Shown here in pieces: positions 1-60,106 of a stretch of DNA of 64,000 nucleotides. The notes under the pieces are model-generated. The model did no database searches. It saw only the letters and a program-made list of their open reading frames with translations, and was not told the DNA's origin. Position numbers and translations under genes: made by a program. Position 1 is the stretch's first letter. Each line of letters opens with the position of its first letter. The DNA is from a virus (lineage: Duplodnaviria; Caudoviricetes): the IMG/VR virus record IMGVR_UViG_3300009161_003648, positions 1 to 64,000 of that record; one strand, given 5' to 3'.

Positions 1-3000
1 ATTCCACTTATTCCAGAAATACCCGACAATCCACTTATTCCACTTATTCCAGAAATACCCGACAATCCACTTATTCCACTTATTCCAGAAATACCACTCA
101 ATCCTGAAATACCACTTAAACCTGAAATACCTGAAAGACCACTTTGACCTGATATGCCTGATATACCACTGATTCCACTCAACCCTGATATACCTGAAAG
201 ACCACTTATACCACTTTGACCTGATATGCCTGATATACCACTCAACCCTGATATACCTGAAGTACCAGATATACCACTTAAACCGCTTATACCACTTCTA
301 CCTGAAAGTCCACTTAAACCACTAACACCATCACAAACATATGAAGTACATGCAATTGTACCACTACCATTTAAAGCACCATTAGTAATTATGGTATATC
401 CATTAAATGAGTATAACCCAGCACCTACGCTTGTACCTGTAACTTGGAAGATTAAAAAATTAGTTGGACTAGTTGGATTAACCATTTGTATTTTACAACC
501 AGCGGCTATTCCTGTTAACCAAGTAGTTGCATTACCTGTTGTACCTGTTGTTATTCCAAGGTCAACATAAGATGTTGTACTTAACTGAATTATTGTTGGT
601 GGGTTAGTATCAAATCCATAAGCTCCAGCCCCACCACCACCTTGTTTGTAAATTAAAGAATTGCTACCACAAGTACCAAACAATCCTGATACACCACTAA
701 TACCACTTCTACCTGACAATCCACTTATACCAGACATTCCACTTATTCCACTTAAACCAGATGTACCTGAAATTCCGCTTAAACCTGAAATACCAGATGT
801 TCCTGACAATCCACTTATTCCACTAGTTCCTGAAATACCACTAATTCCACTTATGCCAATTATACCTGATAATCCGCTAATTCCTGAAGTACCTGATATG
901 CCGCTTAAACCTGAGATACCTGAAGTACCTGATATACCACTTGTACCACTAATACCGCTTAATCCACTAATTCCAGATATACCTGATGTACCTGATATAC
1001 CACTTATACCACTAATTCCTGATGTTCCTGAGATTCCACTAATACCTGATAAACCAGAAACACCTGATATTCCACTCAATCCGCTAATTCCTGATGTTCC
1101 GCTAATTCCACTTAAACCACTAATACCACTTAATCCACTAATTCCACTTATTCCTGATGTACCTGATATTCCGCTTAATCCTGAAATACCCGATAATCCT
1201 GAAATACCGCTTAAACCCGATATTCCTGATGTTCCAGATATACCACTAATCCCTGAAATTCCACTAATTCCACTTAATCCTGATGTACCACTTATACCTG
1301 ATATTCCACTCTGGCCCGATGTTCCCGATATTCCTGAGATTCCACTAGTACCACTAATACCCGATATACCACTAATACCCAGTATACCTGATATTCCACT
1401 TAAACCCGAAGTACCGCTAATTCCTGAGATACCGCTTTGACCTGAAATACCTGATATTCCACTTATTCCGCTTGTGCCAATCAATCCACTTATACCACTA
1501 ATACCTGAAGTACCACTAATTCCTGATATTCCACTTTGACCCGATGTTCCTGATATACCACTAATACCACTTAAACCCGATGTGCCTGATATTCCTGAAA
1601 TACCTGAAGTACCACTTTGACCTGATATTCCACTAATTCCACTTAATCCTGATGTACCACTTATTCCACTTATTCCACTTTGTCCCGATATTCCAGAAAT
1701 TCCTGAAGTTCCAGATATCCCACTTATTCCTGATATACCCAATAAACCAGAGACACCTGAAGTTCCTAATAATCCACTAATACCTGACGTACCTGAGATT
1801 CCTGATATTCCGCTAGTACCACTAATACCCGATATACCGCTGATTCCTTGTAAACCACTAATTCCTGACGTACCTGAGATACCCGAAATACCCGATATTC
1901 CTGAAGTACCAGATATTCCACTCAAACCCGATGTTCCTGAGATACCACTTAAACCCGAAGTACCTGAGATTCCTGAGATACCACTTTGACCTGATATACC
2001 ACTCAACCCTGATATACCTGAAGCACCTGAAATACCTGAAATTCCTGATATTCCACTAATTCCTGATTGACCGCTTATACCACTAATTCCACTTAATCCT
2101 GAAGTACCTGAGATTCCTGATATTCCACTTTGACCTGATATTCCCGATATTCCTGATGTACCACTTATCCCACTTATACCACTTTGACCTGATATACCAC
2201 TCAACCCTGATATACCTGAAGCACCTGAAATACCTGAAATACCACTTATTCCACTTAAACCAGATGTTCCTGATATCCCACTTATACCTGATGTTCCACT
2301 TATACCTGAGATACCGCTTTGACCAGAAGTACCACTTATTCCTGAGATACCGCTTTGACCTAAAATACCTGAAATTCCACTAATACCACTTGTTCCACTT
2401 AATCCGCTTATACCTGAAGTACCACTTATTCCTGAGATACCACTTTGACCCGATATACCCGATATTCCTGATATTCCTGACGTTCCGCTTATTCCACTTA
2501 TACCACTAGTTCCTAAAATACCGCTTATACCTGAAGTACCACTTATACCGCTGATTCCACTTTGACCCGAAATACCACTTAAACCTGATATTCCTGAGCC
2601 ACCAGTACCTGAGATACCACTAATACCAGATGTTCCTGATATCCCACTTATTCCACTTAAACCCGAAGTACCTGAAATTCCTGATATTCCCGATGTACCT
2701 GATATTCCACTAATACCCGACGTTCCTGATATTCCCGAGATACCTGAAGTACCCGAGATTCCACTTATTCCACTTATTCCACTGGTACCTAATAAACCCG
2801 AGATACCAGATGTACCTGAGATTCCAGAAATTCCTGAAGTTCCTGATATTCCGCTTATACCACTTAAACCACTAATTCCGCTTTGACCTGATATTCCTGA
2901 AATACCACTTGTACCACTGATTCCACTGATACCTGATATACCTGATGTACCACTTATACCACTGATTCCTGATGTACCTAATAACCCACTAATACCCGAT

Positions 3001-5873
3001 GTTCCTAATATACCTGAAATACCACTTAACCCACTTATACCCGAAGTACCCAATAAACCCGAAATACCAGATGTACCACTAATTCCACTAATACCACTTG
3101 TTCCACTTAATCCACTTATACCTGATGTTCCACTTATACCACTAATACCTGAGATACCTGATATTCCTGATGTACCACTTAAACCTGATATACCTGAAAT
3201 ACCCGATATTCCACTTTGTCCTGAGATTCCACTTATACCACTATTACCTAACAAACCCGATATACCTGATGTTCCCAAAATTCCACTTATACCCGAAATA
3301 CCACTTAATCCACTTATACCGCTAGTTCCTGAAATACCCGAGATACCTGATGTACCAGATATACCCGATATACCACTTTGACCTGATATACCACTTATTC
3401 CTGATGTACCTAATATACCACTGATTCCTGAAGTACCTGAAATACCTGAGATACCACTAGTACCTTCTATACCACTTATACCACTTATACCTGAAGTACC
3501 TGAGATTCCTGAAATTCCTGATGTACCACTTATTCCAGAGATACCTGAAGTACCTAAGATTCCTGAAATACCCGATGTACCTTGAATACCACTTATACCT
3601 GAAGTACCCTGTAAGCCTGAAATACCTGAAGTACCACTTATACCGCTAATTCCACTTTGACCTGACGTTCCTGAAATACCACTAATTCCGCTAATTCCAC
3701 TTAAACCACTAATTCCGCTTTGACCTGAGATTCCTGATATCCCACTGATACCAGAAGTTCCTAATAAACCACTTATTCCTGAAGTTCCACTGATACCTGA
3801 GATTCCTGAAGTACCTGATATACCTAAAATACCACTTAAACCACTTGTGCCACTTATACCTGAGATTCCTGATACTCCACTAGCACCGCTAATACCACTT
3901 ATACCTGAAGCCCCTGATAAACCACTAACTCCCGATATACCACTAACACCTGATTGTCCTGATAATCCACTAATTCCTGAAACACCACTCTGTCCGCTTA
4001 TACCACTAATACCTGATGTACCACTTATTCCTGATTGACCGCTTATTCCACTTACACCCGATATTCCACTCTGTCCGCTTATACCACTAATACCTGATGC
4101 ACCACTAATACCTGATGCACCCGATGTACCTACAGTACCACTTAATCCACTTAATCCACTTTGTCCTGAAATTCCTGATTGGCCACTTATTCCTGAAGTA
4201 CCTACAGTTCCTGATAAACCACTAACTCCCGAAGTACCACTTATTCCCGATATTCCACTCGTTCCAACAGTTCCTGATATGCCACTAATACCTGAAGTGC
4301 CTACTAACCCTGAAATTCCACTTGTACCAACTGTACCTGATAATCCACTAATACCACTTGTTCCCGAAGTACCCACTATTCCTGATATACCACTTGTACC
4401 GACTGTACCTGATAATCCACTAATACCTGAAGTGCCTACTAACCCTGAAATTCCACTTGTACCTACTAACCCTGAAATTCCACTTTGTCCTGAAATTCCG
4501 CTCACACCACTTATTCCCAATACACCTGATTGCCCTAATAATCCACTAATACCTGATGTACTATTACCACTTATACCACTAATTCCTGATGTACTATTAC
4601 CGCTAATACCCGATATACCTGATGTGCCTGCACCTGACAAACCACTAATACCACTTTGTCCATTACCATCCAAACCACTTATACCTGATATACCAACACC
4701 ACTTTGTCCTGATAAACCTGAAGTTCCACTTTGTCCTGATAAACCTGAAATTCCACTTGTTCCTTGTAATCCACTAATACCTGATATACCACTAATACCT
4801 GATTGACCAGATATACCCGATATACCCGATGTTCCTGATGTTCCACTTAAACCACTAATTCCGCTAGTACCGCTTATACCACTTATTCCTGAAATACCAG
4901 AGGTACCTAATAAACCACTAACTCCTGATGTTCCGCTAATTCCTGAGATTCCTGATGTACCAGATATACCTGACGTACCTAATAAACCACTTATACCACT
5001 TGTACCAGATATTCCACTAATTCCTGACGCACCACCCAACCCACTTAGACCCGAGATACCTGAAGTTCCCAATAATCCACTAAAACCGCTTAAACCTAAA
5101 ACACCACTTAATCCGCTAATACCACTTGCACCTGATAGACCACTTATTCCTGACGCCCCACTCAAACCACTAATTCCTGAAAAGCCACTTATACCACTAA
5201 ATCCTGAGATTCCACTAAGTCCACTTATACCAGAAGTCCCTGAAAGACCTGATATACCTGATAGACCATTTATACCGCTTGCCCCACTCAATCCTGAAAT
5301 TCCGCTTGCACCTGACAAACCACTGACACCTGAAAGTCCACTGATACCTGAGGTACCACTTAATCCACTTACACCGCTAAGTCCTGATATACCCGAAAGT
5401 CCACTAATTCCACTCGTACCTGATAAACCGCTAATACCTGATATTCCACTTAATCCTGATATTCCTGACAATCCACTAACGCCACTCAAACCACTTATTC
5501 CTGATGCCCCACTTAATCCACTTATACCACTAAAACCTGATATACCTGACAATCCACTTATTCCTAACGCACCACTCAATCCTGAAATACCACTTGTACC
5601 ACTTAGTCCCGAGATTCCTGACGCACCACTGATTCCTGATGTTCCACTTAAACCACTAATTCCTGATGTACTATTACCGCTAATACCTGATGTTCCACTT
5701 AGTCCGCTAATACCGCTAAAACCTGAGATTCCACTCAATCCTGATATACCTGATAATCCACTGATACCCGAGGTACCACTAAGTCCAGAAATACCTGAAA
5801 GTCCTGATATTCCACTCAAGCCGTTAATACCGCTAAAACCTGAGATTCCACTCAATCCTGTAATACCACTAAC
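1..5873 (-). repeat. 9-bp-period coding repeat (Gly-X-Ser triplets), interrupted by a non-repeat island at ~335-680
   Basis: + strand shows continuous ccactt/cctgat/cctgaa/attcc units with CC every 9 nt. An exact 36-bp tandem unit (ccacttattccacttattccagaaatacccgacaat) occurs at 1-93. Confidence 0.95.
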
Positions 5874-6365
5874 ATTAAATGTACCTCCGCTATTATTTGT
5901 AAATATTAACGTACTAGCAGCAGCGCTATATGTACCACCAGTTACAAATATATCTTTTGGTAAGTTTTGATATGTTGTTGCAGATATCGTATTTGCCGTT
6001 AATCCACTTAAGAAATTTGTCGACCCACTAACCGTACCACCACTTAACGGTAAATAGTTACCAGACGCTGTTGATGTTGAACCAGTTGTAAAACCTGTAA
6101 CCTGAAATGTACCACCTGTTGAGTTAACAAATGTTGCAGTACCTGTACTATTATTATATGTACCACCTGTTACATAAACATTTGACGATGAACCAGTTAT
6201 ACCTGATAAACTTATAGTAAAAGCTGAATATTGGTCAATTCTATTTTGTGTTAGGATAATATTGTTTGATGACAGGGTAAACCCAGTCACAAAAGTATCA
6301 TCAAGCAATAATGGCTCAATTATAAATGTTTCATTAATATCTCCAAAGTTATTTACACAGCTCAT
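1..6365 (-). CDS. Giant collagen-like (Gly-X-Ser)n fibre protein, 3'-partial (>2,120 aa; runs off left edge)
   Basis: ATG at 6365-6363 overlaps the TGA of the upstream gene (ATGA). Manual translation gives [18 protein letters not shown]...[28 protein letters not shown]..., then ([12 protein letters not shown])n from ~5870 to the edge. The frame is the same at both ends and at every spot check; the + strand Pro-rich ORFs in the track are all the antisense of this one frame. Not every codon was checked for stops. Confidence 0.92.
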
Positions 6366-7414
6366 ATTGTATTACCGATTAATTGAAATTTACCTGTTGC
6401 TAAATTTGATTTATAAACTCTTATACTAACAGTACTATTAGCACTTATTGCTATTGGCGATGTTAATGTCAATCCGTCAAACACCCCAACACCATTAACT
6501 GATATAACAATCCTGCTAATATCCTCAACATTTATTAGTTGGTTAAAACTAATAGCATATTGTGCATTAAATGAAAACCTAGGCTCAGACCTTGGTTTAA
6601 ATACAAACGTATACGTTGCAGTATTACCTCTTACAATAGGGTCAAATATAACATTATGAAATGTTTTATTTTCATCCAACTCAATTAGTGTATAAACTCT
6701 ATTAATTGTTGGAATAACCTCAAAATCATTTTCATCTAAAATATATCCAAGCAGTGTCATATCAAATAATTGAACATAAAACCTTCTATTTTCAAAATCG
6801 TCAATATTACTTTCATCACTAATACCTTCCAAATGAACAGGCATTGGGTGACCCTTAACGTTAATGTATGCTTGTCTTGACTGAAACGTTCTTTGAACTA
6901 AAGAATTTAATTTATTTAAATCTTTCATTCTATTTGTAAAAATCCTAACCTCATAACTAATATCAACCGATGTCGGTTGTGGTACTTTATATACATCAAC
7001 GCCCTTTCTAGCACCATCCCAAGTTGGAACCTTCATATATGTATAGGTTCTGTTGCCTGGGATATTGTAGTTACCTGCTTGATTTTGCCCTACTTGCGCA
7101 TCTGGTTTTCTAACGATTGTAATAAAGGGTAATTGAATATCTTTATATTTATCACTAAACTGCCAAGTTTTTGTAAACTCAGACCATCTTTGTATTGTTA
7201 AAAACAACACAGGTACCTTTTCACCATCAACAGTTATACTTAATTCATTTTTAACAAAATCAACAAATGTTTCATCCATATCTTCTTCAGAAACACCTCT
7301 AGGCAAAAATGTTCCATGGTCAGCAATATCATCAAGAATTTCTTGCCTTCTTTCTGGACCTATTTTACCTGGGTTAATGTTTATGTTATTTCTAAAGCCT
7401 TTTGGAACTGCCAT
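6362..7414 (-). CDS. Putative tail-completion/terminator protein (T4 gp15-like) with C-terminal beta-rich extension
   Basis: 350-aa ORF next to neck-like genes. The LPFITIVR ... [11 protein letters not shown] pattern resembles tail terminator proteins; family call from resemblance and context. Confidence 0.5.
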
Positions 7415-7435: not shown

Positions 7436-7957
7436 TTATACACCCCTAAATTCAGAAGCGTCTACTGGCGCACAAACAACTGTTCTAAACGCCCCTTTCC
7501 ACCCCATTATTGTATGTGCGTTATCAAAATTCTTTTTTCCGTCATTTGAAACACTAAAATATCTTATATCTGTTTCAGTCACTGGGTATCCTATATAATC
7601 ACCGTAAGCTATATCAATTTTCTGTTCAGTAAGCTGAGCATCATAAATACCAAATGTCAATTGCCCATCTTGTAAATATCTAGCCGAACCATTTGAATTA
7701 TAACTTTTATTTTCTGGCTCTGCCATTATAGGTATTACCTTAAGCTCAATCGGTGGAAAAAATCTAATACCATCTTTAGTTGCCTCGGTATACAAATTAT
7801 CATATTGCGTCATATCTCTGTCAACTCTATAAAGGATAAGAGTAAAGTTACCATCACCCTCAATAGCCTCCCTACCCATACTAACTTCTAGTTCAAAATC
7901 TTCACCAGAAAAAAACTTGTTTATACGCGTAATTGGTGTTATTTTAGAGTTTGCCAT
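7436..7957 (-). CDS. Putative head-closure/neck protein (T4 gp14-like)
   Basis: 173 aa. Contains LYRVD...DNLYTEA...F.PPIEL and LTFGIY...GDYI patterns typical of gp14-like head-closure proteins; structural-gene context. Confidence 0.55.
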   Translation of the reverse strand: MANSKITPITRINKFFSGEDFELEVSMGREAIEGDGNFTLILYRVDRDMTQYDNLYTEATKDGIRFFPPIELKVIPIMAEPENKSYNSNGSARYLQDGQLTFGIYDAQLTEQKIDIAYGDYIGYPVTETDIRYFSVSNDGKKNFDNAHTIMGWKGAFRTVVCAPVDASEFRGV

Positions 7958-37733: not shown

Positions 37734-38999
37734 ATGAGTAAAATTAAAGTCTTGGTAGTACCATCTGACCGTACTGGTGTTGGATACTTTAGAAGCACAA
37801 AACCACACATTGCGTTAGAAGAAAAATACCCAAATGAATTTCACGTAGATATTGAATACGAACCAGAGTTGAACAACGACGAATGGTTAAAACAATACGA
37901 TATAATACATTATCATAGAACCTTAGGCGCTTACGAACAACAAGAAAGCTTGTTGAATAAATTAGATAATTTAGGTATCGTAACAATAATGGACTTAGAT
38001 GATTATTGGTCACCTGGTCAACATCATCCAGCTTTTTTATTAATTAAAAATAGTGGTTTAGATAAAATGATTCTAAATAATATTAGAATTGCTAAGAACG
38101 TAACAACAACAACAAGTATATTTGCTGAAGAAATTGGAAAACATAATAAAAACGTATTTGTTTTACCAAATGCTATTGACCCAAATGAAAAACAATATAC
38201 ACCAACACCAGAACCAAGTGAAAGATTAAGAATTGGATGGTTAGGTGGTTCATCACACTTAAAAGATTTAGAAATTTTAAAAGGTATTGTTGGTAGATTA
38301 CATAATGACGGACTATTAGAAAAAGTTCAATTTGTTTTGTGTGGTTATGATTTAAGAGGGACAATGACAATTATCGATGAAAAAACTGGACAACAAACAC
38401 AAAGACCAATCAAACCAACAGAAAGCGTTTGGTACCATTACGAAAGAATTTTCACAGAAGATTATACAACAATTAGTCCAGAATATAAAGAATTTTTATT
38501 AAAATTCAAAAATGAGGAATATCCCAATGTTGCAAATGAACCATATAGAAGAGTTTGGACAAAACCAATTAGTACATACGCTTCAAACTATAATTTATTT
38601 GATATATCATTAGCGCCAATTGAAGAAAATATCTTTAACAAGGTTAAGAGTCAACTTAAAGTTATTGAAGCTGGGTTTCATAAAAAAGCCCTAATTGCAC
38701 AAGATTTCGGACCATATCAGATAGATATTAAAAATGCGCACCAATTTGGTGGTAGCTGGGATACTAATGGTAATGGTATTTTAATTGATACAAATAAAAA
38801 CCATAAAGATTGGTATAAATTTATTAAAAAATTAATTGTTGAGCCAGAACTAGTTAAACAATTAAGTGAAAACTTACACAACACAGTTAAAAATTTATAT
38901 TCTGTACAAGCGGTTAGTGACAGCAGACGTGATTTATATAAAAAATTAAAATCACAAATGGATGAAAAACAATCAGCTAAAAAAATGGTTTTAAATTAG
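37734..38999 (+). CDS. Glycosyltransferase, GT-B fold (GT4-like)
   Basis: GVGYFR, MDLDD, VLPNAID, IGWLGGSSHLKDL and DISLAP...FN..KSQLK..EAG. Confidence 0.85.
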   Translation: MSKIKVLVVPSDRTGVGYFRSTKPHIALEEKYPNEFHVDIEYEPELNNDEWLKQYDIIHYHRTLGAYEQQESLLNKLDNLGIVTIMDLDDYWSPGQHHPAFLLIKNSGLDKMILNNIRIAKNVTTTTSIFAEEIGKHNKNVFVLPNAIDPNEKQYTPTPEPSERLRIGWLGGSSHLKDLEILKGIVGRLHNDGLLEKVQFVLCGYDLRGTMTIIDEKTGQQTQRPIKPTESVWYHYERIFTEDYTTISPEYKEFLLKFKNEEYPNVANEPYRRVWTKPISTYASNYNLFDISLAPIEENIFNKVKSQLKVIEAGFHKKALIAQDFGPYQIDIKNAHQFGGSWDTNGNGILIDTNKNHKDWYKFIKKLIVEPELVKQLSENLHNTVKNLYSVQAVSDSRRDLYKKLKSQMDEKQSAKKMVLN

Positions 39000-39019
39000 A
39001 CTTTTTCATTTGTTTTTGG

Positions 39020-39035
39020 TATATTTGTAAAAAAT
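39020..39035 (+). promoter_or_regulatory. Bacteroidota -7 element (TATATTTG) upstream of the nucleotide-metabolism genes
   Basis: TATATTTGTAAAAAAT-ATG shares its TTTGTAAAAA continuation with the polB promoter; the -33 position reads TTAG (imperfect). Confidence 0.6.
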
Positions 39036-39611
39036 ATGATTATGATTAAACAAGAACAAATTGTAAAAAACACTAAAAAGTATTTCCAAACGGCTCAAGA
39101 ACAAGGGTTTATGACTGAAGAGTTGATGTCTTTTTTAGGTGAAACTTTTATTAAAGCGCCTGCATCAACTATGGCCGATTTAAATAACGCATTTGAAGGT
39201 GGTTTAATTGACCATCTTTTGCGTGTAACAAAATATGCTGTTTCAATAAATGAAACTATCCTACCAGAAAATCTTAGATTACCAAAAAAAGATATTATTA
39301 AAGTTTGCTTTTTACACCAAATTGGTAAAGCGCATCTTTATGTCCCATGCACATCCGAATGGCATATTAAAAATCAAGGTAAATTATACGAATTTAATGA
39401 TGGGCTAACATCTATGCGTGTTGGTGAACGTTCAGCTCATTACGTATTAAGTAATGGTGTTACACTCACTGAAGAAGAATACCAAGCAATTATAAATTTT
39501 GATAAGGACGATAGTGATAAACAAGCAAAATATCACAATTCATTATTGGGTGACCTATTAAAAATGGCTAACCAATTAGCAATCATTGAAGAAAAAAATC
39601 AAAAAAACTAA
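39036..39611 (+). CDS. HD-domain-like protein (HD replaced by HQ)
   Basis: GGLIDHLLRV...FLHQIGK...GLL..LLKMAN follows the HD-superfamily layout. Confidence 0.65.
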   Translation: MIMIKQEQIVKNTKKYFQTAQEQGFMTEELMSFLGETFIKAPASTMADLNNAFEGGLIDHLLRVTKYAVSINETILPENLRLPKKDIIKVCFLHQIGKAHLYVPCTSEWHIKNQGKLYEFNDGLTSMRVGERSAHYVLSNGVTLTEEEYQAIINFDKDDSDKQAKYHNSLLGDLLKMANQLAIIEEKNQKN

Positions 39612-39612
39612 T

Positions 39613-40191
39613 ATGGATATAGCTGAAAAAATGAGACAAAGGATATTTGATATAATTGACCCAAATATCGATTATACACAAGAAGATTTTGAAAAAGAAT
39701 TTGGTAATATTGATTATAGCAAAAACAATAATTCAAATTTTAAATTGAATATTAATTTTGTAAATGAATCCACAAACCCAAATCCAGAATACGCAACCGA
39801 GGGTTCATCAGGATTTGATTTAAGGGCAAATTTACAAACCCCTATCGAAATACCTAGTGGCGATATTCAAACCATTCCAACAGGATTATATTTTGAAATT
39901 CCACAAGGTCTTGAAATTCAAGTTAGACCAAGAAGTGGTTTAGCCGCAAAAAATGGTGTAACTGTTTTAAACACACCAGGCACCGTTGATTCAGATTACC
40001 GTGGTGAAGTTAAAGTAATACTTATTAATCATGGTAATAGAATATTTACCGTTAATCATGGGGATAGAATTGCACAAGCAGTTATTGCGTCAGTAATGGG
40101 TAAAAACGTTATTGAATTAAACAAAACTTCAAAAATTTCAAACGATACTGTTAGAGCATCTAATGGTTTTGGTAGTACTGGGTTACAATAA
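39613..40191 (+). CDS. dut: Trimeric dUTPase with N-terminal extension (ATG at 39613 preferred over TTG 39586)
   Basis: All five motifs present: GSSGFDL, RPRSGL, GTVDSDYRGE, RIAQ, GFGSTG. Confidence 0.95.
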   Translation: MDIAEKMRQRIFDIIDPNIDYTQEDFEKEFGNIDYSKNNNSNFKLNINFVNESTNPNPEYATEGSSGFDLRANLQTPIEIPSGDIQTIPTGLYFEIPQGLEIQVRPRSGLAAKNGVTVLNTPGTVDSDYRGEVKVILINHGNRIFTVNHGDRIAQAVIASVMGKNVIELNKTSKISNDTVRASNGFGSTGLQ

Positions 40192-40201
40192 AATAAAAAA
40201 A

Positions 40202-41194
40202 ATGAAATTAGATTTTAACGATTTGTTAATCGTACCAAAAGAAATAACAAATATAAATAGTCGAACTGAAATCAATCCGTACATTTTTGCGATGCTACCA
40301 TTAATTACCGCACCTATGGACACTGTTGTATCCAAAGAAAATGCGGGTTTATATATTATTAATAATATAAATGTATGCCTACCTAGAAACGTAGACTGTG
40401 ATTTAGGGTTTAAAGCATATTCAATATCTCAGATGAATGATTTATTAAATTCTAATAGAGGTATTTTAGAAAATGGGTATTATTTAATTGATGTTGCTAA
40501 TGGGCATATGGATTCGGTAATAAACATCACAAAAAAAATTAAAAAACAATATCCAATTTTAAAATTAATGGTTGGCAATGTTGCTAATCCAGAAACATAT
40601 CGATTACTGTCTGAAGCTGGTGCAGATTACGTCAGAGTTGGCATTGGCAATGGTGGTGGTTGTTTAACAACACAAAATACAGGTGTTGGGTATCCAATGG
40701 CGTCATTGATTAAAGAATGTTATGATATATCTGCAACATTAAACAACCCCGCATATATAGTTGCTGATGGTGGAATGCAAACATACAGCGACATAATTAA
40801 AGCTCTTGCATTAGGTGCTGACTATGTTATGCTTGGTAGTGTTCTAAATAAATCACTTGAATCTGCTGGTGATAATTATCTTTGGAAAAAAATAAAGGTA
40901 TCACAAACAATGGCTGAAAAAGCGTATAAACTAGGTATACCTGTTTATAAAATGTTTAGAGGTATGAGCACCAAAGAAGTTCAAAAAAAATGGGGTGCTA
41001 AAGTCATTAAAACTTCTGAGGGTGTTGTAAGATATCGAAGAGTAGAATACACCTTATCTCAATGGTCCGAAAACTTTGAACATTACTTACGTTCAGCAAT
41101 GAGCTATACAGGTTCACACAAACTAAGCGAATTTATCGGTAAAGCAAACTTAATACAAATAACAAATAACTCATATAAAAGATTTAACAAATGA
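40202..41194 (+). CDS. guaC: IMPDH/GMP reductase family, probably GMP reductase (start ATG 40202)
   Basis: ITAPMD, IDVANGH, GNVA, GIGNGGGCLT, VADGG, ALALGAD.VMLG and FRGMS. No CBS domains; the short flap lacks the IMPDH Arg-Tyr dyad. Confidence 0.75.
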   Translation: MKLDFNDLLIVPKEITNINSRTEINPYIFAMLPLITAPMDTVVSKENAGLYIINNINVCLPRNVDCDLGFKAYSISQMNDLLNSNRGILENGYYLIDVANGHMDSVINITKKIKKQYPILKLMVGNVANPETYRLLSEAGADYVRVGIGNGGGCLTTQNTGVGYPMASLIKECYDISATLNNPAYIVADGGMQTYSDIIKALALGADYVMLGSVLNKSLESAGDNYLWKKIKVSQTMAEKAYKLGIPVYKMFRGMSTKEVQKKWGAKVIKTSEGVVRYRRVEYTLSQWSENFEHYLRSAMSYTGSHKLSEFIGKANLIQITNNSYKRFNK

Positions 41195-42654
41195 TAACAG
41201 TAGTATATTGTACTAGAAACTCAAACCCTAAACACACAGAACATATTATTAAAATGTCTGGTTTAGGTAAACACATTGAAGTGATTGAAATTATAAATAA
41301 TGGTGAATCACTAACAAAATGTTATAACCGTGGATTAAAAGCTGCGAAAAACGATATTGTTGTATTTATGCACGACGATGTAATAATTGAAACTTCTGCT
41401 TGGGGTAGTAAAGTTATCAAACATTTTGAAAGCAACCCAGAATTTGGAATACTTGGTGTTGCTGGAACAACAGATATGCCATTAAGTGGCAGATGGTGGG
41501 AAGACAGAACGAAAATGGTTGGTATTGTTAACCACGAAAACGAAGGGAAAAAATGGGAGTCAAAATACTCTAAGAATTGGGCCAATGATATTGTAGAAGT
41601 ACTTTCTGTTGATGGATTATTTTTTGCTGTTCATAAAAATAGAATTAAAAATAATTTTGATGAGAATGTGGAAGGGTTCCACTTTTATGAAATTGATTTT
41701 GTATTCTCTAACTACTTAGCTGGTGTTAAAGTTGGTGTTCTTTTTAATGTACGATTAACCCACAAGTCAATCGGTATGACAAATGAACAATGGGAAGAAA
41801 ATAGACTTAACTTTGTTAAAAAATTTAATGATGATTTACCAGAAAAATTTGTACCAGCAACTTATCAGCCAAAAGAATCGAATAATAAAAATACAAAGGT
41901 TGGCGTTAAAATTGTGATACAATCACATGGTGATGTTAAGGTTTTTGAAACACTATATAATAAAATTAAATCTTTTAATTATCCTAATTTAACGATTTTT
42001 TTAATTACAATCGAAAACTCATATGATAGATTTAAAGATTTAAATTATGAAGGTGTTAAAATTTATGAAGGGTTTTATGATAGCTTACCAAAAAATTTAT
42101 CAATATTAAAATTTGAAGATGATTTTGTAACTAGCGACGACGATTTGATTTTTTTTATGAATGATGGTGTTGACATTATAAATAATATATTCTTAAGCTT
42201 TGCAAAAATTTACGGAATAAATAAAAACACCTTTGGTTGTGGGTTTCCTTTATCTTACAATCAAAATAACACAGTTTTTTGTTCTAGCTTAGAAATATTT
42301 GTGAATAAAGAAGGTAAAGTTGCGATTAATATGAAAGATAGCAACACATATTACAATGTTTATTATGGTAATATATTAAATAGTTTTGGTAATCTTGCTG
42401 ATTGTTTTGTAACAACATACACCAACTTAAAATCTTTAGATTGGTTTAAATTAAATTATGACACACCACTGTACTTTAATGAATTTTCGCTTAGATTATC
42501 ACTGAAAAATAAATTGACTTATAACGATACCAATTCATTAACTGTTCAAAAATCTTTTTTGGGTGAATCACATATCCAACAAGATTTTCAAAATCTTATT
42601 AATTTTGTTAGTACGGATGATAAATTAAAAGCATTAGTTAAAAATATAGAATGA
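41191..42654 (+). CDS. GT2-like glycosyltransferase with a second degenerate GT-A domain
   Basis: YNRGLKAAKNDIVVFMHDDV and FHFYEIDF in the N-terminal half; IFFMNDGV in the C-terminal half. Confidence 0.8.
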   Translation: MITVVYCTRNSNPKHTEHIIKMSGLGKHIEVIEIINNGESLTKCYNRGLKAAKNDIVVFMHDDVIIETSAWGSKVIKHFESNPEFGILGVAGTTDMPLSGRWWEDRTKMVGIVNHENEGKKWESKYSKNWANDIVEVLSVDGLFFAVHKNRIKNNFDENVEGFHFYEIDFVFSNYLAGVKVGVLFNVRLTHKSIGMTNEQWEENRLNFVKKFNDDLPEKFVPATYQPKESNNKNTKVGVKIVIQSHGDVKVFETLYNKIKSFNYPNLTIFLITIENSYDRFKDLNYEGVKIYEGFYDSLPKNLSILKFEDDFVTSDDDLIFFMNDGVDIINNIFLSFAKIYGINKNTFGCGFPLSYNQNNTVFCSSLEIFVNKEGKVAINMKDSNTYYNVYYGNILNSFGNLADCFVTTYTNLKSLDWFKLNYDTPLYFNEFSLRLSLKNKLTYNDTNSLTVQKSFLGESHIQQDFQNLINFVSTDDKLKALVKNIE

Positions 42655-43433
42655 TAAAGATAGTTTCTGGTTATACAAATAAAGGTGGGTCGACAATTGC
42701 ATTTATTAACTTAACAAATGCTTTAAATAATGCTGGTTACGATTGTACACTTTATGGACCACACGAATGGCATTTAGACAAGTGTAAATCTGGTTTATTA
42801 AACCAGTTGTCTTTTGATAAAAATGATAGTGTTATATCACATTATTTAAATTTAGAACAAAGACCAGACGTAAAAAAAATTGTTTTATCGTGTCATGAAA
42901 AATGGTGGTTTAGCTTTAGTAAAACTAATAGATACTTTGATAGTGCAGTTTTTTTACATGAAGCGCACAGAAATTTTCATTCAGATTACTATGGTGATTA
43001 TGTTATAATACCAAATCTAAAAGAAAATTTAATACCAAAAGAAAAACCAGAATTAGATTTAGTTGCAGGTATAGTTGGCTCTATTGAAGATAGAAAACAA
43101 ACACATGTTTCTATACAAAGAGCGATGAAAGATAAATGTAAAAAAATATACCTATTTGGTTCAATAAACGAAGAAGATTATTTCAACAACTACGTTAAAC
43201 CATTATTAAATCCAAAAATAGAAATGCTTGGCCATACAACAAATAAACAAGAAATGTATGACATGATTGGTAGAGTATATCATTCATCAAAAGGGGAAGT
43301 TGCTTGCTTAGTTAAAGACGAGTGTTATCTAACAAATACAAAGTTTTTTGGTAATGAAGAAACTGAAAATGAAGTCTCAACATTAACCAATGAAGAAATA
43401 ATAACACTATGGAAAAAAACACTTGATTTATGA
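42651..43433 (+). CDS. Glycosyltransferase, GT-B-like
   Basis: KGGSTIAFINLTNAL, GIVGSI..RKQ and E..CLV..EC pattern. Confidence 0.7.
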   Translation: MIKIVSGYTNKGGSTIAFINLTNALNNAGYDCTLYGPHEWHLDKCKSGLLNQLSFDKNDSVISHYLNLEQRPDVKKIVLSCHEKWWFSFSKTNRYFDSAVFLHEAHRNFHSDYYGDYVIIPNLKENLIPKEKPELDLVAGIVGSIEDRKQTHVSIQRAMKDKCKKIYLFGSINEEDYFNNYVKPLLNPKIEMLGHTTNKQEMYDMIGRVYHSSKGEVACLVKDECYLTNTKFFGNEETENEVSTLTNEEIITLWKKTLDL

Positions 43434-43975
43434 GAAAAATTTTTATAGATGGCGGTGCAAGGATTGGAGAATCAATACAAGAACTATTGGATAAAAGAGA
43501 AGACTTACAAGGTTGTGACGTATATCTTTTTGAATGTAATTCTGACCATCATAAAACACTTAATGATATTAAAGAAAACAATAAAAATTATAATTTTATT
43601 GTTAGAGAAGAAGCCCTGTGGAATAAAAATGGTGAACAATCATTTTATATATCCGTTGACCAATGGGGTGATTTAGGTTGTACATTAGATTCTAGCAAAC
43701 GTGAAAAACTTGATTTACAAAACCCTAGAACTGTTAAGACTTTAAGATTATCAGACTTTTTAGATGAGTTTAATGATGATGACTATATTGTTTTAAAATT
43801 AGATATTGAAGGTGGTGAGTACAAAGTTATTACTGATTTAATAAATACCGATAAAATCAAAAAGATTGATGAATTATTTGTTGAATGGCATGACCATTTT
43901 TTTAATATGTCATCGCAACCATTAAAAAATGCTTTATCACAATATAATATAAAAGTTAACCATAATTGGATGTAA
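43430..43975 (+). CDS. FkbM-family methyltransferase
   Basis: FIDGGARIGES, LFE and LKLDIEGGEY. Confidence 0.85.
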   Translation: MRKIFIDGGARIGESIQELLDKREDLQGCDVYLFECNSDHHKTLNDIKENNKNYNFIVREEALWNKNGEQSFYISVDQWGDLGCTLDSSKREKLDLQNPRTVKTLRLSDFLDEFNDDDYIVLKLDIEGGEYKVITDLINTDKIKKIDELFVEWHDHFFNMSSQPLKNALSQYNIKVNHNWM

Positions 43976-43976
43976 T

Positions 43977-44699
43977 ATGAACATACACGCACACATACTT
44001 TCTTGGAATGAAGAAAAAATATTACCATATACGTTAGACCATTATTCTAATATCTGCAGTAAAATTTTTATACACGATAATATGTCAACCGATAGTTCTG
44101 ATGAGATATATAAAAAATATCCAAAGGTTACAGTATTAAAATGGGACAGTGGCAATGAAATCAATGAACTTAATTACACAAAAATAAAATCAGAGTCATA
44201 TAAACAATATAGCAGAGGCGAGGATGTTGATTGGGTTATTGTATGTGATTGTGATGAATTTTTATATCACGAAAATTTAATTGAAAAACTAAAAGAATAT
44301 AAATCTATTGGTGTTACTGTTCCAAGGATAGATGGACACGATATGGTTTCAGAAACTTTTCCCGACTACGATGGAATCCCATTAACAGAAAAAGTTAAAA
44401 TTGGTTCAGATACTTATGGCCCAATGTGTAAGAATATTATCTTTAGCCCTAAGTTAGATGTACAATACGGTATTGGTGGTCATAGCTTTGGCTCAAATGG
44501 TACAGTATACTCTGATTCTGCAGATTTAAAATTATTACACTATAAATTTTTGGGTAAAGATTACGTTAAACGAGCATATGTTGCTAGAGCTAAAAGATTA
44601 TCATCATTTAACAAACAACATAAATTTGGTGAACACTATTTTAATTTACCCTTTGAATATATGGATAACATGTTATCAGAAAAAAGACAAGTCATATGA
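43977..44699 (+). CDS. GT2-like glycosyltransferase
   Basis: WNEEKILPY.LDHY, HDNMSTD, WVIVCDCDEF and LLHYK. Confidence 0.85.
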   Translation: MNIHAHILSWNEEKILPYTLDHYSNICSKIFIHDNMSTDSSDEIYKKYPKVTVLKWDSGNEINELNYTKIKSESYKQYSRGEDVDWVIVCDCDEFLYHENLIEKLKEYKSIGVTVPRIDGHDMVSETFPDYDGIPLTEKVKIGSDTYGPMCKNIIFSPKLDVQYGIGGHSFGSNGTVYSDSADLKLLHYKFLGKDYVKRAYVARAKRLSSFNKQHKFGEHYFNLPFEYMDNMLSEKRQVI

Positions 44700-45520
44700 G
44701 AAAAATATTAGTTTCTGATTTTACAACTAAAGAAGCGCCTCATGGTGGTTCAGAATGGGTTAACGAAGTTTTAATTAAGAAATTTAATTTAGAATTTGAA
44801 TATTCGTCCCAGTTACAATCGTGGGATACGGAAAACTTTTATATAATTTCAAACATTTCATTGATGAACCCAACGTTAGTTAGAGAAATACCAAAGTTAA
44901 ATTATATAATTATTGAAAACGATTATAAAATATGCGAGAGTAGACACCCGTGGCGATATCCAAATTCAATAGTACCAAAAAACCAAAGAATAAACTACGA
45001 TATTTACAAAAATGCTAAAGCGGTATTTGTTCAAACGACAGACCATTTTAATGTATATAAAGCAAATGAGGTTGAGGGTAATTTTATAAATTTAAATTGC
45101 TCAATATGGTCTGACGAAGATTTAGAAATGTTAAATAATTTTTTAATGAACAAACCAACAAAAAATGGTAAGACCGCTGTTTATTATACTAACAACTGGA
45201 TAAAAAATAGTGAAGGTGCTATTAAATATTGTAACGACAATGGATTAACACCTGAACTTATTGAAAACAATCCAAATAGACAAGATTTTTTAGACAAATT
45301 ATCTAGTTGCTCACAATTAGTTTTTTTACCCATTGCTAGAGAAACTTTTTGTCGGTTAGTTGTTGAGGCTAAATGCATGGGGTTAGAAGTGATAACAACT
45401 AAAAATTATGGTGCGTCTTTAGAAACTTGGTTTGATATGAAAGGTGCTGACATGCTTAAATTTTTAAGGTTTAAAACTGATAAGAATATAACAACCATAG
45501 GTCAATATATAAATTTTTAA
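44696..45520 (+). CDS. Glycosyltransferase, GT-B-like
   Basis: HGGSEW and LVFLP..RETFCRLVVEAKCMGL (EX7E-like). Confidence 0.7.
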   Translation: MRKILVSDFTTKEAPHGGSEWVNEVLIKKFNLEFEYSSQLQSWDTENFYIISNISLMNPTLVREIPKLNYIIIENDYKICESRHPWRYPNSIVPKNQRINYDIYKNAKAVFVQTTDHFNVYKANEVEGNFINLNCSIWSDEDLEMLNNFLMNKPTKNGKTAVYYTNNWIKNSEGAIKYCNDNGLTPELIENNPNRQDFLDKLSSCSQLVFLPIARETFCRLVVEAKCMGLEVITTKNYGASLETWFDMKGADMLKFLRFKTDKNITTIGQYINF

Positions 45521-45522
45521 TT

Positions 45523-46437
45523 ATGTCGATTCAGAAATGGTTTAAAAATAAAATTACTGCACTATCAATAGCTTTTTCAAACGTTGAAAAAAATCTATTG
45601 AATCAAGATGGTAAAAATTTAGGTGAAGATATTAAACAAACCAGAAGGCATCTACAGGGTACGCTTGTTGATTCTTTATTACATGGCGAGGTTACCCAAG
45701 AGGTGAAAAATTTACGATGGAGGACATATAAAATTTTAAAAGAAACACAAGCAGCTGAAATTATTTTTGAAGGTGTTGACGAAAATGGAATGCCAATTTA
45801 TACTATCAGTAAAAAAAATACAAAAAAGGGTTTATCTAAAATTAAAATTGATAAATTTGACAATTATAAATTAGAATTAGTTGTTGACAATAGCGAAATA
45901 TCAAATAGTGTTACTGAGGCTATAAATGATTTATTAAAAGACGGTATAATTAATGGTGCTGAATATTTTGCGACTAGTAAAGGCGATAACCCAATTAAAA
46001 TTAAAAGGGCAACAATGCCAAAATTTTGTATTGAAAGATATACTAAAAAATTAAATATTAGAAAAATAAATAAAGACAAAAAACTATTAGAGTTTTATGT
46101 TAATAAATATTCAAATGAATATAATGTAAATGCCAATTTATTTTTAAATGAAATTAATAAACTTATTAAAAACGGTCCTCATAATATTAACTTTTTAGAA
46201 CTAGATGAGGTTAGCTTTATATCAAATAATACAATTGGAACCAGCGACTTTTTAAGTTATTCATATGGTAATATATCTTTTGATAAAGTTATTGAATTTA
46301 ATGGTTATTACGTTATAAAGTTTTTTGCTGAAGTAATTAATGATGGTGACGATATTCTTTCAGAATATATTGAACCTGAATTAGATGAAAAATATAAAAA
46401 TAAAGAATCTAAAATAAAAAGACCAAAAGATTATTAA
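45523..46437 (+). CDS. Hypothetical protein
   Basis: 304-aa ORF inside the cluster with no recognisable motif. Confidence 0.7.
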   Translation: MSIQKWFKNKITALSIAFSNVEKNLLNQDGKNLGEDIKQTRRHLQGTLVDSLLHGEVTQEVKNLRWRTYKILKETQAAEIIFEGVDENGMPIYTISKKNTKKGLSKIKIDKFDNYKLELVVDNSEISNSVTEAINDLLKDGIINGAEYFATSKGDNPIKIKRATMPKFCIERYTKKLNIRKINKDKKLLEFYVNKYSNEYNVNANLFLNEINKLIKNGPHNINFLELDEVSFISNNTIGTSDFLSYSYGNISFDKVIEFNGYYVIKFFAEVINDGDDILSEYIEPELDEKYKNKESKIKRPKDY

Positions 46438-46439
46438 AT

Positions 46440-47099
46440 ATGAACCTAATAATAAAATTTCCAACTAGAAATCGGGTAGAAAAATTTAAAAAAGTACTAG
46501 AAAGATATATAAAATTTTTAGATGACAAAACAACTAAAATTATCGTTAGTTGCGATATTGATGATACTTCAATGAATAACGATAACATTATTGAATATAT
46601 CCTGCAATACCCAAATGTTGAGATTTTTTATAGCGATAATAAATCAAAAATAGATGCAGTAAACGCCGATTTAAAAAATGTTGATTTTGATATTGTTTTA
46701 CTCGCATCTGACGATATGATACCTATTAAAAAAGGTTTTGACACAATAATAAAAAATAAAATGTCTGAGGTATATCCAGATACCGACGGAATCTTATGGT
46801 TTAATGACGGGTTTCAAGGTAATAAATTAAATACACTATCAATATTGGGAAAAAAATATTATGATAGGTTTGGTTATATATATTATCCCGAATATCTGTC
46901 AGCTTATTGTGATAATGAGTTTATGGAAATTGGTAATATGTTAAATAAACAAACATATTTTGACGAAATAATAATTCAGCATCAACACCCAGATTGGGGG
47001 TTTGGTGATACCGACTATATACATGTTTTAAATAGTATTAATGGTGGTCACGATAACACGTTGTATAACAACAGAAAAAAAAATAATTTTTATTTATGA
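46440..47099 (+). CDS. GT-A/GT2-like glycosyltransferase
   Basis: KFPTRNR, DIDD, KIDAVN, LLASDDMIP and YCDNEF. Confidence 0.8.
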   Translation: MNLIIKFPTRNRVEKFKKVLERYIKFLDDKTTKIIVSCDIDDTSMNNDNIIEYILQYPNVEIFYSDNKSKIDAVNADLKNVDFDIVLLASDDMIPIKKGFDTIIKNKMSEVYPDTDGILWFNDGFQGNKLNTLSILGKKYYDRFGYIYYPEYLSAYCDNEFMEIGNMLNKQTYFDEIIIQHQHPDWGFGDTDYIHVLNSINGGHDNTLYNNRKKNNFYL

Positions 47100-47920
47100 A
47101 AGTAGCATTTAATACAATGTTTAAAAATGAAGAAATTTTATTAAACGAAGTTTTAAAAATATGGAAAAATTACCCAATTGATTTATTCATATTTTATGAT
47201 GATAATTCAGTAGATTCATCTGTCGATGTAATTAAAAAAAATTTACCAAGCGATAAATTTATCATTATTAATGATAAATTAACTAGCTTTAATGAATCAT
47301 ATCAAAGACAAAGAATGATTGATGTTGCTAAAATGAATGACATTGATTTTGTTTTTTCGATTGATTGTGACGAACTGCTAACCAGCAATATCGTATCAGA
47401 TTTTAATAGTTTTATAAACATATATAATACCTATGATATGCGATTATTTTGGTACAATTCTGTTAACAATATAAATGAATACAGAACCGACCCATTATAT
47501 GCACATAATTATCGAACGTTTGTAATACCATTAAATTTTTGTGGTACATTAAATAAAAATGATTTTAAATATCACACACCAAGAACACCACAAATTAATT
47601 TACCAGCAACACAGACTGCTGACTATGGTGTGATACATTTACAGGCGATTAATAAGAGATATTATGCAATAAAACAGCTTTGGTATAAGCATCATGAATT
47701 TGTTAATTATGGTCATAGTGTTTCATTCATAAATGATAGATACGACCCAGTGGTAAATAATCTAACATTTAATGAAGTTAAAATACCAAATCATTTAATC
47801 GAAGGTATTGAATTCAATATAGATGTTTTTAACGCTCTAGAAAAATCTAAAGGGTATTTACAATTTATAAAGGAAAATTATAATGGGGAACTAATAACAT
47901 TTGGAAAAGAATATTTATAA
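47096..47920 (+). CDS. GT2-like glycosyltransferase
   Basis: MFKNEE, YDDNSVD, FSIDCDE and VIHLQ. Confidence 0.75.
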   Translation: MKVAFNTMFKNEEILLNEVLKIWKNYPIDLFIFYDDNSVDSSVDVIKKNLPSDKFIIINDKLTSFNESYQRQRMIDVAKMNDIDFVFSIDCDELLTSNIVSDFNSFINIYNTYDMRLFWYNSVNNINEYRTDPLYAHNYRTFVIPLNFCGTLNKNDFKYHTPRTPQINLPATQTADYGVIHLQAINKRYYAIKQLWYKHHEFVNYGHSVSFINDRYDPVVNNLTFNEVKIPNHLIEGIEFNIDVFNALEKSKGYLQFIKENYNGELITFGKEYL

Positions 47921-47921
47921 T

Positions 47922-48665
47922 ATGAATAACTATACAATTGGTATAACAACATTTTCAAACAGATATCATTACATTGTAAAACTATTATCACAAATAAGAA
48001 AATTTACAGACAAAAAAATTGTGTTGATAGTTAATGGTGAAAAAAATGGTGAGTTTGATGACGATTACAGAAATAACATTTTATTGTTATCCGCAAAATA
48101 TTCACATGTATACCCAATATTTTTTATTGAAACTAGAGGATTGTCAAAATTATGGAATACGGCACTAATAAATTCATACGATGATAATTTACTATTACTA
48201 AATGATGATTTAGAAATACATTCATCTGACATTTTTGATAAAGTAGATGCTCACATAAATACAAACAACTTTAATGGTATAACAAAAATAAATAATTCTT
48301 TTTCACATTTTATCGTAAATAAAACTGTGATTGACAGCATCGGATATTTTGATGAAAGGTTAATAGGTTTTGGTGAGGAAGATGGCGATATAACGTATCA
48401 ATTATTAAAAATAGGTTTAAACATTAATAATTTATTTATTAATGGTGTAATTAATATCGTTTCAAATGTAAGACATGAGCATATTAAATCTGGGATTGGC
48501 AAATATTCACATTTTAATAGGGAGTTTATTTATAATCAAAAATATGAAAAAAACCTAGCAGGTAATTTAAGGGGCATGTTTGACACACCTATGAATCAAA
48601 TTTTAAACAATATAAAGCAATACCCATACGAAAACTTCTTTAGGGAAAACAAAACAAAATTATGA
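47922..48665 (+). CDS. GT2-like glycosyltransferase (ATG 47922 preferred over TTG 47901)
   Basis: IGITTF, GLSKLWN, LLLNDD and GYFDERL.GFGEEDGD. Confidence 0.85.
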   Translation: MNNYTIGITTFSNRYHYIVKLLSQIRKFTDKKIVLIVNGEKNGEFDDDYRNNILLLSAKYSHVYPIFFIETRGLSKLWNTALINSYDDNLLLLNDDLEIHSSDIFDKVDAHINTNNFNGITKINNSFSHFIVNKTVIDSIGYFDERLIGFGEEDGDITYQLLKIGLNINNLFINGVINIVSNVRHEHIKSGIGKYSHFNREFIYNQKYEKNLAGNLRGMFDTPMNQILNNIKQYPYENFFRENKTKL

Positions 48666-49891: not shown

Positions 49892-50640
49892 TAAATTATA
49901 TTGTATATTCAAATACTGATTATTTAGACGTGCTTAAAATACAAACCGATTACATGCAGAATATCGGCAACCTATCACTTTTTATCAATAAAAACGATTT
50001 AGATTTATCGGAAATATATTCAAAATATGATAATGTTATTTTTTATGATGGTAATGACACATATGCTAAAAGATTAATGACGTGTTTAAACCAGATTGAT
50101 TTTGAATACTTTGTTTTAATACATGATATTGATATATTATTAAAAGTTAAAGATGAAACAATTATTAATTTTTTTGATTTTATTAAAAAAAATAATGTGG
50201 ATAGGATAGATTTAAAATACACTGAAAAAACAAATGATATTATTGAGTTTGATTTAAATGGTCTGTTTTTAGTACCACAAAAAAATGAAAATAATTTTAT
50301 ATATAATGTAAATCCGTCAATATGGAAAAAATCTGCGTTATTAGACATCGTAACATCGTTTCAACATAAAACATATAGAACAATTGAAGATATCGATGTT
50401 CAAATTTTTGCTAAAAAATTTAATGTCTATAAATTAAACAAAGAACCTAAAATATCTTGTGGTTACTTTAATTGTGTTGATGATTTTATATTTTTACACA
50501 TAAGCCATAGCGGTAAATTTTTAACCTTACCAAGTAATTTTGTCACTGAATATGGGCAATCCTATGGTGATATCGCTAACGAATACGTTAAAATTGTTGA
50601 AAAGTATAATCTAAAAAATAGTAACAAATGGAACAGATGA
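49888..50640 (+). CDS. Hypothetical, possible GT-A-like protein
   Basis: YAKRL..CL.QI..EY..LIHDID and YNVNPSIWKK resemble GT-A motifs; cluster context. Confidence 0.45.
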   Translation: MINYIVYSNTDYLDVLKIQTDYMQNIGNLSLFINKNDLDLSEIYSKYDNVIFYDGNDTYAKRLMTCLNQIDFEYFVLIHDIDILLKVKDETIINFFDFIKKNNVDRIDLKYTEKTNDIIEFDLNGLFLVPQKNENNFIYNVNPSIWKKSALLDIVTSFQHKTYRTIEDIDVQIFAKKFNVYKLNKEPKISCGYFNCVDDFIFLHISHSGKFLTLPSNFVTEYGQSYGDIANEYVKIVEKYNLKNSNKWNR

Positions 50641-52219: not shown

Positions 52220-52220
52220 T

Positions 52221-53690: not shown

Positions 53691-53720
53691 CTTTTTTTTA
53701 TTATTTTTTAAACAAAAACT

Positions 53721-54446: not shown

Positions 54447-54447
54447 C

Positions 54448-55906: not shown

Positions 55907-55909
55907 AAT

Positions 55910-56800: not shown

Positions 56801-56812
56801 AAACACATACAC

Positions 56813-57415: not shown

Positions 57416-57417
57416 AT

Positions 57418-57954: not shown

Positions 57955-57959
57955 AAATT

Positions 57960-60103: not shown

Positions 60104-60106
60104 ATT

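Follow-up and report, generated by a model that had tools for sequence, protein, structure and literature searches.

The window examined here is a stretch of 64,000 nucleotides, positions 1 to 64,000 of the IMG/VR virus record IMGVR_UViG_3300009161_003648 (Duplodnaviria; Caudoviricetes), and its left end is occupied by a gene for a giant collagen-like protein, referred to below as the fibre gene. Its open reading frame (ORF) lies on the minus strand at 3..6365, starts with the ATG at 6365, and runs off the left edge of the window after 2,121 codons without a stop. An initial annotation made from the sequence alone had proposed this frame, open past the window edge, and had explained the plus-strand ORFs lying over it as Pro-rich antisense shadows. 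Both descriptions were borne out, the plus-strand ORFs at 226-570, 661-1440 and 4279-4806 being short and Pro-rich. The continuation of the frame beyond the left edge was also found. Scanning metagenome contigs with an internal domain of the protein (the NC domain) recovered a 7,257-bp contig, L085, that matches window positions 1046..1 at 99.6% identity without a gap. The frame closes there with a stop, the last 382 codons plus the stop lying at L085:1051-2199, and the composite protein is 2,503 amino acids (aa) long.

The protein begins with an N-terminal globular domain (aa 1-166; 5868..6365, minus strand, as for all parts of the gene in the window) that contains two 'VTGGTY...TF.V.G' motifs. 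It is followed by a first collagen-type region, COL1 (aa 167-1902, 1,736 residues; 660..5867), by the Cys-containing NC domain of 110 aa (aa 1903-2012; 330..659) and by a second collagen-type region of 387 aa, COL2, which starts in the window (aa 2013-2121; 3..329) and reaches aa 2399 in L085. A C-terminal knob of 104 aa (L085:1885-2196) follows COL2. The initial annotation had counted about 1,730 consecutive Gly-X-Ser residues. The length was right; the word consecutive was not, since COL1 has four small interruptions (TS at 233-234, irregular stretches at 559-568 and 581-604, and IS at 1259-1260).

The composite holds 693 triplets, with GIS (340), GTS (116), GLS (105) and GQS (33) the main types. 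Ser fills 91.6% of the Y positions, and X is Ile in 51.4%, Leu in 18.3%, Thr in 18.2% and Gln in 4.8%, much as the first reading had it. Of the residues known to stabilise collagen helices (Pro or hydroxyproline, charge pairs), the triplets have no Pro at all and about 0.3% charged residues, and the entire part of the protein within the window contains only 7 Pro, 3 Glu, 3 Lys, 3 Arg and 9 Asp. The longest Gly-X-Y runs reach 218 triplets and are separated by two-residue breaks only. Pfam Collagen (PF01391) matches with 786.8 bits against a cut-off of 27.2. The repeat is far beyond chance.

The polar X residues of COL1 are almost always single. Thr and Gln at X occur as 148 singles versus 18 longer runs, and recur every ~3-3.5 triplets (as in 'IIT IIT IIQ'), with an autocorrelation of 0.23-0.41 at lag 3, negative values at lag 2 and values of about 0 at lag 6. 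The axial rise of collagen is 0.286 nm per residue. At this rise the 1,736 aa of COL1 would span ~0.50 µm, so the earlier estimate of ~0.5 µm holds, and the 387 aa of COL2 would add ~0.11 µm.

Authenticity of the repeat

A repeat of this kind could be an assembly artefact or a dead, unexpressed expansion. All five assemblies available do break within the gene. In addition, the longest exact repeat in the gene (92 nt) is located exactly at the end of the window contig, where it includes exact 36-nt tandem copies (1..95), and the copy number there may be off by a few triplets. However, contigs from other samples and assemblers are colinear with the window at 99.6-99.9% identity and free of indels across 5.5 kb plus 1 kb. 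An exact-DNA scan of IMG/VR gave no match. Three of the contigs, from three other freshwater samples, also encode the 350-aa protein of the gene next to the fibre gene and align to as much as 5,460 nt of the ORF at 99.9% identity without a gap; all three stop inside the repeat, the longest extending to window position 906. Counting L085, four other assemblies agree with the window without gaps.

The gene itself also argues against an artefact. Only 144 of its 7,482 31-mers (2%) are repeated, 7.5 kb are free of stops, and both termini are conserved with functional-looking homologues. Ser in COL1 is encoded by 275 TCN and 257 AGY codons. Because these two boxes cannot be interconverted by single synonymous steps, Ser must have been kept by selection on the protein; the degenerate DNA and the mixed Ser boxes indicate protein-level selection rather than DNA amplification.

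Pieces of the gene are matched exactly by short contigs from public freshwater sequencing runs of several studies, and many pieces also by Logan contigs of run X1. Contigs from a metatranscriptome run match parts of the ORF, which is a weak hint of expression, given that coverage in the RNA runs is contig-based and no proof of transcription. Apparent 'joints' inside the repeat were considered as length variants and rejected. Their sides are only 20-32 nt long, often with foreign letters between them, and we take them to be k-mer cross-talk with other collagen-like genes. Overall, the artefact or dead-repeat explanation is largely refuted and we consider it highly improbable. The giant Pro-free Gly-X-Ser collagen-type ORF of this phage is real.

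Sister phage and wider relatives

We found 320 relatives of the N-terminal domain in IMG/VR; in the best 78 loci, the ORF with this domain never has collagen repeats. The closest relatives (L007-L010) come from a sister phage, and the genes around them match those of the window at 89-98% identity. The fibre that the sister phage has at this locus is 979 aa long and free of Gly-X-Y runs. Compared with the fibre of the window, it is 91% identical over aa 1-131, 82% over aa 103-165 and 51% over the last 72 aa, and the genes downstream of the fibre are syntenic in both phages. With both ends conserved and the middle different, the shaft has been exchanged, and the comparison identifies the protein as a putative virion fibre with a swapped shaft. 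It has the features expected of a tail or side fibre, namely a conserved N-terminal module, an exchangeable distal part and a place in a block of fibre genes, and is most likely of this type. The N-terminal domain is presumed to be the virion-attachment module.

CheckV rates sister records of 120 kb and 169 kb as 34% and 48% complete, respectively, which implies a genome of ~350 kb. The source of the window is a novel uncultured freshwater jumbo phage. Its genes in the window include a family B DNA polymerase with distant kin in Salinibacter and Nostoc phages, an SNF2 helicase and an ArdC-like protein. The structural genes include a T4 gp13-like neck protein, a fibre with an S74 chaperone and a tailspike-like protein of 2,072 aa. 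Neither terminal domain of the fibre was found in 50,697 deposited phage genomes.

We searched 1.84 billion representative proteins with phmmer, using aa 605-1258 as the query, and obtained 51,344 collagen-like matches. The initial annotation had held that phage and prokaryotic collagens are usually much shorter than this fibre. The search did not support this, as most of the best 150 of the 51,344 matches span 1,000-4,756 aa. Some 28 of these 150 are nearly Pro-free with Ser in 60% or more of their Y positions; at X they usually carry Tyr, Phe, Ile or Thr, and their triplets number 90-236. Others are Pro-free Gly-X-Gln or Gly-X-Thr proteins, or are animal-like. The maximum among the best 150 is 499 triplets, versus 693 in this fibre.

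Several relatives share more than the repeat. One Gly-X-Ser fragment (P0002) has a knob 78% identical to that of the fibre, and a complete 192-aa mini-version (P0003) has a related C-terminal domain. The complete Pro-free genes of L098/L099 (1,546 aa) and L100 (1,805 aa) have 358-442 Gly-Thr-Ser/Asp triplets and the same plan of N-domain, COL, NC, COL and knob, the knob being 61% identical. Across the sets examined, the Pro-free Gly-X-Ser fibres of other phages, some of which share this knob, reach 442-462 triplets at most. The L100 contig, from IMG/VR, carries two giant Pro-free Gly-Thr-Ser genes in tandem (4904-10315 and 10319-15268), the second of which encodes at least 1,650 aa and runs off the contig.

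Judging from these comparisons, the fibre is an extreme and exceptionally hydrophobic representative of a class that recurs, not a one-off. Its size and the hydrophobic, uncharged residues at X distinguish it from the rest of the class. Pro-free, Ser-rich phage collagen-like fibres are best seen as a recurrent and undescribed class of collagen-like phage fibre; the searchable literature yielded no account of Gly-X-Ser or Pro-free phage collagens. Viral collagens in the literature show 22% Pro and 35% Asp/Glu at X (PMC3368898 Table 4), and bacterial collagens prefer Pro at X and Thr at Y (PMC8968730).

The fibre gene belongs to a run of minus-strand genes headed by a 173-aa gene of unknown function (7436..7957). 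Between the two lies the 350-aa gene, also of unknown function (6362..7414, minus strand), whose stop overlaps the fibre start by 4 nt (ATGA). Its product is 97.7% identical in the sister phage and is therefore not specific to the collagen-type fibre. Candidate promoter and terminator sites around the fibre gene start were no more frequent than in shuffled controls. On the other side, directly after the fibre gene, L085 2201-7257 encodes two DUF5122 beta-propeller proteins, a 254-aa protein with a short Gly-X-Ser stretch and two Gly_rich_2 proteins. The sister phage has these genes in synteny, although diverged (30-73%). Their products may be distal fibre or receptor-binding parts.

Further proteins of the window are encoded on the minus strand. 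A 399-aa fibre protein (34019-35218) has a Peptidase_S74 domain and a weak Collagen_trimer match (E 0.03) at its extreme C-terminus. The 2,072-aa protein (24110-30328), a further very large structural protein in the same block, has PHROG matches to tail spike and virion structural proteins and no Pfam family. For an 805-aa protein (19726-22143) we considered a type IX secretion system (T9SS) C-terminal domain and rejected it; there was no NCBIfam match at E<=0.01, T9SS sorting-domain models included, and no Pfam or PHROG match.

Fold and proposed glycosylation of the shaft

We favour, with moderate confidence, the explanation that the fibre gene is a genuine structural gene of the jumbo phage and encodes a modular, very long virion fibre with a collagen-type shaft, whose triple helix and glycosylation we infer. 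The N-terminal ~166 aa and the C-terminal ~45-104 aa are common to this fibre and the sister's 979-aa fibre, the shaft between them having been replaced by two collagen-type regions and a 110-aa globular domain. Three chains might associate through the C-knob, the NC domain or both, and zip into a collagen-type triple helix ~0.6 µm long. Such a fibre could serve as a long flexible tether that enlarges the capture radius of the phage. With less confidence, we propose that the near-invariant Ser at Y would be O-glycosylated by phage glycosyltransferases. The glycans would solubilise a rod with 70% Ile/Leu at X and could lend stability to a helix in which Pro and charge pairs are both absent.

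A collagen-type shaft is favoured because of the PF01391 score of 787 bits, because the same plan recurs in the 1,546- and 1,805-aa Pro-free fibres, and because there is no 2- or 6-triplet periodicity. The composition does lie outside every experimentally verified triple helix, and the shaft might instead be an extended, flexible, mucin-like spacer, possibly heavily glycosylated, or a polyproline-II bundle or beta-solenoid. However, Gly is kept at every third residue, in runs of up to 218 triplets, while the DNA drifts. This is expected if Gly is buried in a triple helix and needless in a disordered spacer, and it speaks for a structure with every third residue buried. A hexapeptide or 18-residue beta-helix would give a period of 2 or 6 triplets, and neither was seen; a left-handed beta-helix built on an I-S-G-I-S-G hexapeptide was rejected for this reason and for want of a Hexapep match, with no Hexapep or other Pfam repeat family found in the protein at E<=1. 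Polyglycine-II bundles need Gly more often than one residue in three. We regard a shaft without a triple helix as quite improbable. In a collagen-type shaft, the helix might take 10/3 symmetry, as expected of imino-acid-poor helices (PMC13138384).

A PDB sequence search gave no meaningful match for the N-domain, the NC domain, the C-knob, the 350-aa protein, a 421-aa transferase or the GT61 glycosyltransferase protein, and neither the N-terminal domain nor the C-knob had a match in the Pfam search. Relatives of the C-knob have precomputed matches to the Pfam family PF26696. The NC domain is probably beta-rich. Besides its own copy in L085, no relatives of it were found in IMG/VR, in a search of 5.8 billion proteins (206-2000 aa only) or in metagenome contigs, and its neighbours in the Atlas are unnamed viral clusters. 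An AlphaFold2 single-sequence model of this domain had a predicted local distance difference test (pLDDT) score of 32 and was unusable. A trimer prediction with three copies of aa 1861-2054 scored 0.00; it was run without controls and is evidence neither way.

The C-terminal domain could be modelled from an alignment of 52 sequences, which gave a pLDDT of ~90 for the last ~45 aa. Both Foldseek-seeded and unbiased searches yielded fold matches with Z scores of 3.8-4.8 and root-mean-square deviations of 1.6-2.3 A over 39-43 residues. The best were the N-terminus of Mtd, the C-terminus of CBA120 TSP3 and Acinetobacter phage tailspikes, together with the trimerization domains of collagens XV/XVIII. 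The matched phage modules are small pieces of trimeric phage fibres and tailspikes. These matches are only suggestive of a trimerisation domain, which would nucleate the triple helix.

A source for the proposed glycosylation may lie in the same genome, which contains both the giant Pro-free Gly-X-Ser fibre and phage-encoded glycosyltransferases. A 26-kb glycan island (37734..64000) with all its genes on the plus strand continues past the right end of the window. It has at least eight glycosyltransferase-like genes (GT2 types, GT61 and phrog_7162), as well as FkbM and TylF methyltransferases, a DegT aminotransferase, epimerase/dehydratases, a nucleotidyltransferase, a class II aldolase and the halves of a thiamine pyrophosphate (TPP)-dependent enzyme, and it is interspersed with genes for a dUTPase, a GMP reductase and a uridine kinase. 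The transferases of the window annotated by Pfam are of GT2 and GT61 types, none of them GT9. The TPP-enzyme halves are two small adjacent genes (56813-57954, plus strand) with precomputed Pfam matches on L004 to E1_dh/TPP_enzyme_C and Transket_pyr, and may point to branched-chain sugar synthesis.

The right-hand part of the island differs between the two phages. Positions 46440-64000 (~18 kb, with the GT2 types, GT61, PRK/uridine kinase, TylF, aldolase, TPP halves, DegT, epimerases and nucleotidyltransferase), together with their continuation in L004 as far as PhoH, are missing from the sister phage, where the same conserved flanks enclose another set of ~11 kb. The left 9 kb of the island are common to both phages, and the sister's own right part, with GT2s, an epimerase and a UDP-GlcNAc 2-epimerase, ends at PhoH. 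We interpret the right-hand island, from this comparison of gene content, as a hypervariable glycan cassette at a fixed phage locus.

Glycosyltransferases also adjoin other fibre genes of this type. In three of five unrelated Gly-X-Ser fibre genes, one lies directly after the fibre gene or at most three genes away. The first case has two GT1/GT4 genes directly after the fibre gene, within a myovirus tail module; the second has a GT2-methyltransferase-GT17 fusion two genes away; the third has a methyltransferase and a GT9 fragment nearby. For the remaining two, no glycosyltransferase is annotated in the recovered flanking DNA, which for one of them ends with the contig three genes downstream. 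None of three Gly-X-Gln control fibre genes has a glycosyltransferase within 10 kb. With counts of 3/5 vs 0/3 this comparison is too small for significance. We consider the glycan island a candidate source of fibre glycosylation. The island and these neighbourhoods fit the suggestion of the initial annotation that Ser at Y may need O-glycosylation, as weak and circumstantial evidence.

The shaft could alternatively be an unglycosylated triple helix in which Ile and Leu at X drive lateral bundling of several trimers into a thicker fibre or adhesion to hydrophobic surfaces of hosts or particles, the island serving other targets such as virion proteins or the host surface. The 70% Ile/Leu at X and the single polar X residues every ~3-3.5 triplets form a regular surface pattern that would suit such a role, and beta-branched residues favour extended conformations. 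Much of what speaks for this alternative weighs at the same time against a glycosylated helix. The island is 31 kb from the fibre gene, and the sister phage has one at the same locus without having a collagen shaft, so the island need not serve the collagen fibre. A TibC/Aah-type (BAHT, TIGR04414) O-glycosyltransferase was not found in ten unannotated window proteins (NCBIfam, E<=0.01), and TIGR04414 had no match in the sister and relative records G001, G003 and G005-G007. Other counterpoints bear on the favoured explanation. Fold matches of the knob with Z scores below 5 possibly reflect a common arrangement, and the final 382 residues of the composite were taken from another sample's contig, outside the window. 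From host-guest peptides, Persikov et al. reportedly concluded in 2000 that a triple helix forms poorly with Ser at Y. The non-animal collagens described in the literature depend on Pro at X and on charged or Thr/Gln residues, which are nearly absent here (PMC3368898 Table 4; PMC8968730).

An unglycosylated helix would, however, have no known stabilising feature, as there is no Pro and there are no charge pairs. Hydrophobicity is also no requirement of the family, since fibres with the same knob have Thr and Asp in place of Ile/Leu, and the glycosyltransferases beside several other Gly-X-Ser fibre genes also speak against it. We think an unglycosylated helix unlikely. The glycosylated form in its strongest version is a Pro-free, charge-free triple helix of ~0.6 µm that would be soluble and stable only through phage O-glycosylation of Ser at nearly every Y, and we put this forward tentatively, as a possibility rather than an expectation.

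Comparison with known systems

To our knowledge, all collagen helices studied are held by proline/hydroxyproline, by charge pairs, or by glycosylated or hydrated Thr/Gln. If the proposal is true, a natural helix of ~2,100 residues made of Gly, Ile/Leu/Thr and Ser would extend the range of sequences known to adopt the collagen fold, and the fibre would allow testing directly whether O-glycosylated Ser can stand in for imino acids. The fibre of the sister phage, without collagen repeats and at the same locus, provides a natural comparison. A Pro-free, hydroxylase-independent collagen that bacteria can produce would also be of practical interest as a material. A fibre of 0.6 µm would exceed the largest physical dimension given for jumbo phages, 0.45 µm (PMC12619734), and would change host finding.

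The cuticle collagen of the vent worm Riftia would be a close parallel for the proposed chemistry, and the fibre, if it is glycosylated, would be a viral, Ser-based counterpart made inside a bacterium. In Riftia, galactosylated Thr at Y stabilises the helix. The residue at Y differs (Thr vs Ser), and glycosylation in the phage fibre is conjectural. The same caution applies to BclA of the Bacillus anthracis/cereus exosporium, a collagen with an O-glycosylated hydroxy residue at Y whose glycosylation is thought to aid hydration (PMC8968730). BclA differs in having Thr at Y, Pro at X (GPT) and only tens of triplets.

Among phage proteins, the EPclA-D side-tail proteins of Escherichia coli O157:H7 prophages (PMC3368898) resemble the fibre in having globular phage-fibre domains at both ends of a Gly-X-Y stalk. 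EPclA is trimeric and triple-helical and appears as a dumbbell in electron microscopy (PMC3368898). The collagen domains of EPcl are short, the whole molecule being ~60 nm long; they have 48% Pro at X and many charged residues, commonly use GPK, GPQ and GPA, and are unglycosylated (PMC3368898). The fibre, in contrast, has 693 triplets with 0% Pro, ~0.3% charged residues and Ser at Y, and its terminal domains are unrelated to those of EPcl in sequence, with no match among the 50,697 phage records.

Viruses that glycosylate their own particles offer a further comparison. Mimivirus has its own sugar-nucleotide and glycosyltransferase genes and decorates virion surface proteins, including collagen (PMC8968730), but its collagen is glycosylated on hydroxylysine and its host is a eukaryote. 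Mycobacteriophages likewise encode glycosylation of their virions, mentioned for the capsid in PMC11256854; their targets are capsid and tail-tube proteins, not collagen repeats. The fibres of uncultured phages (L098/L100, P0012, P0047 and others) also place giant Pro-free Gly-X-Ser/Thr shafts in phage fibre modules, often with glycosyltransferases adjacent. Their X residues are mostly Thr, Ser, Tyr or Phe, often with Asp at Y, whereas in the fibre of the window 70% of X residues are Ile or Leu and there is almost no charge.

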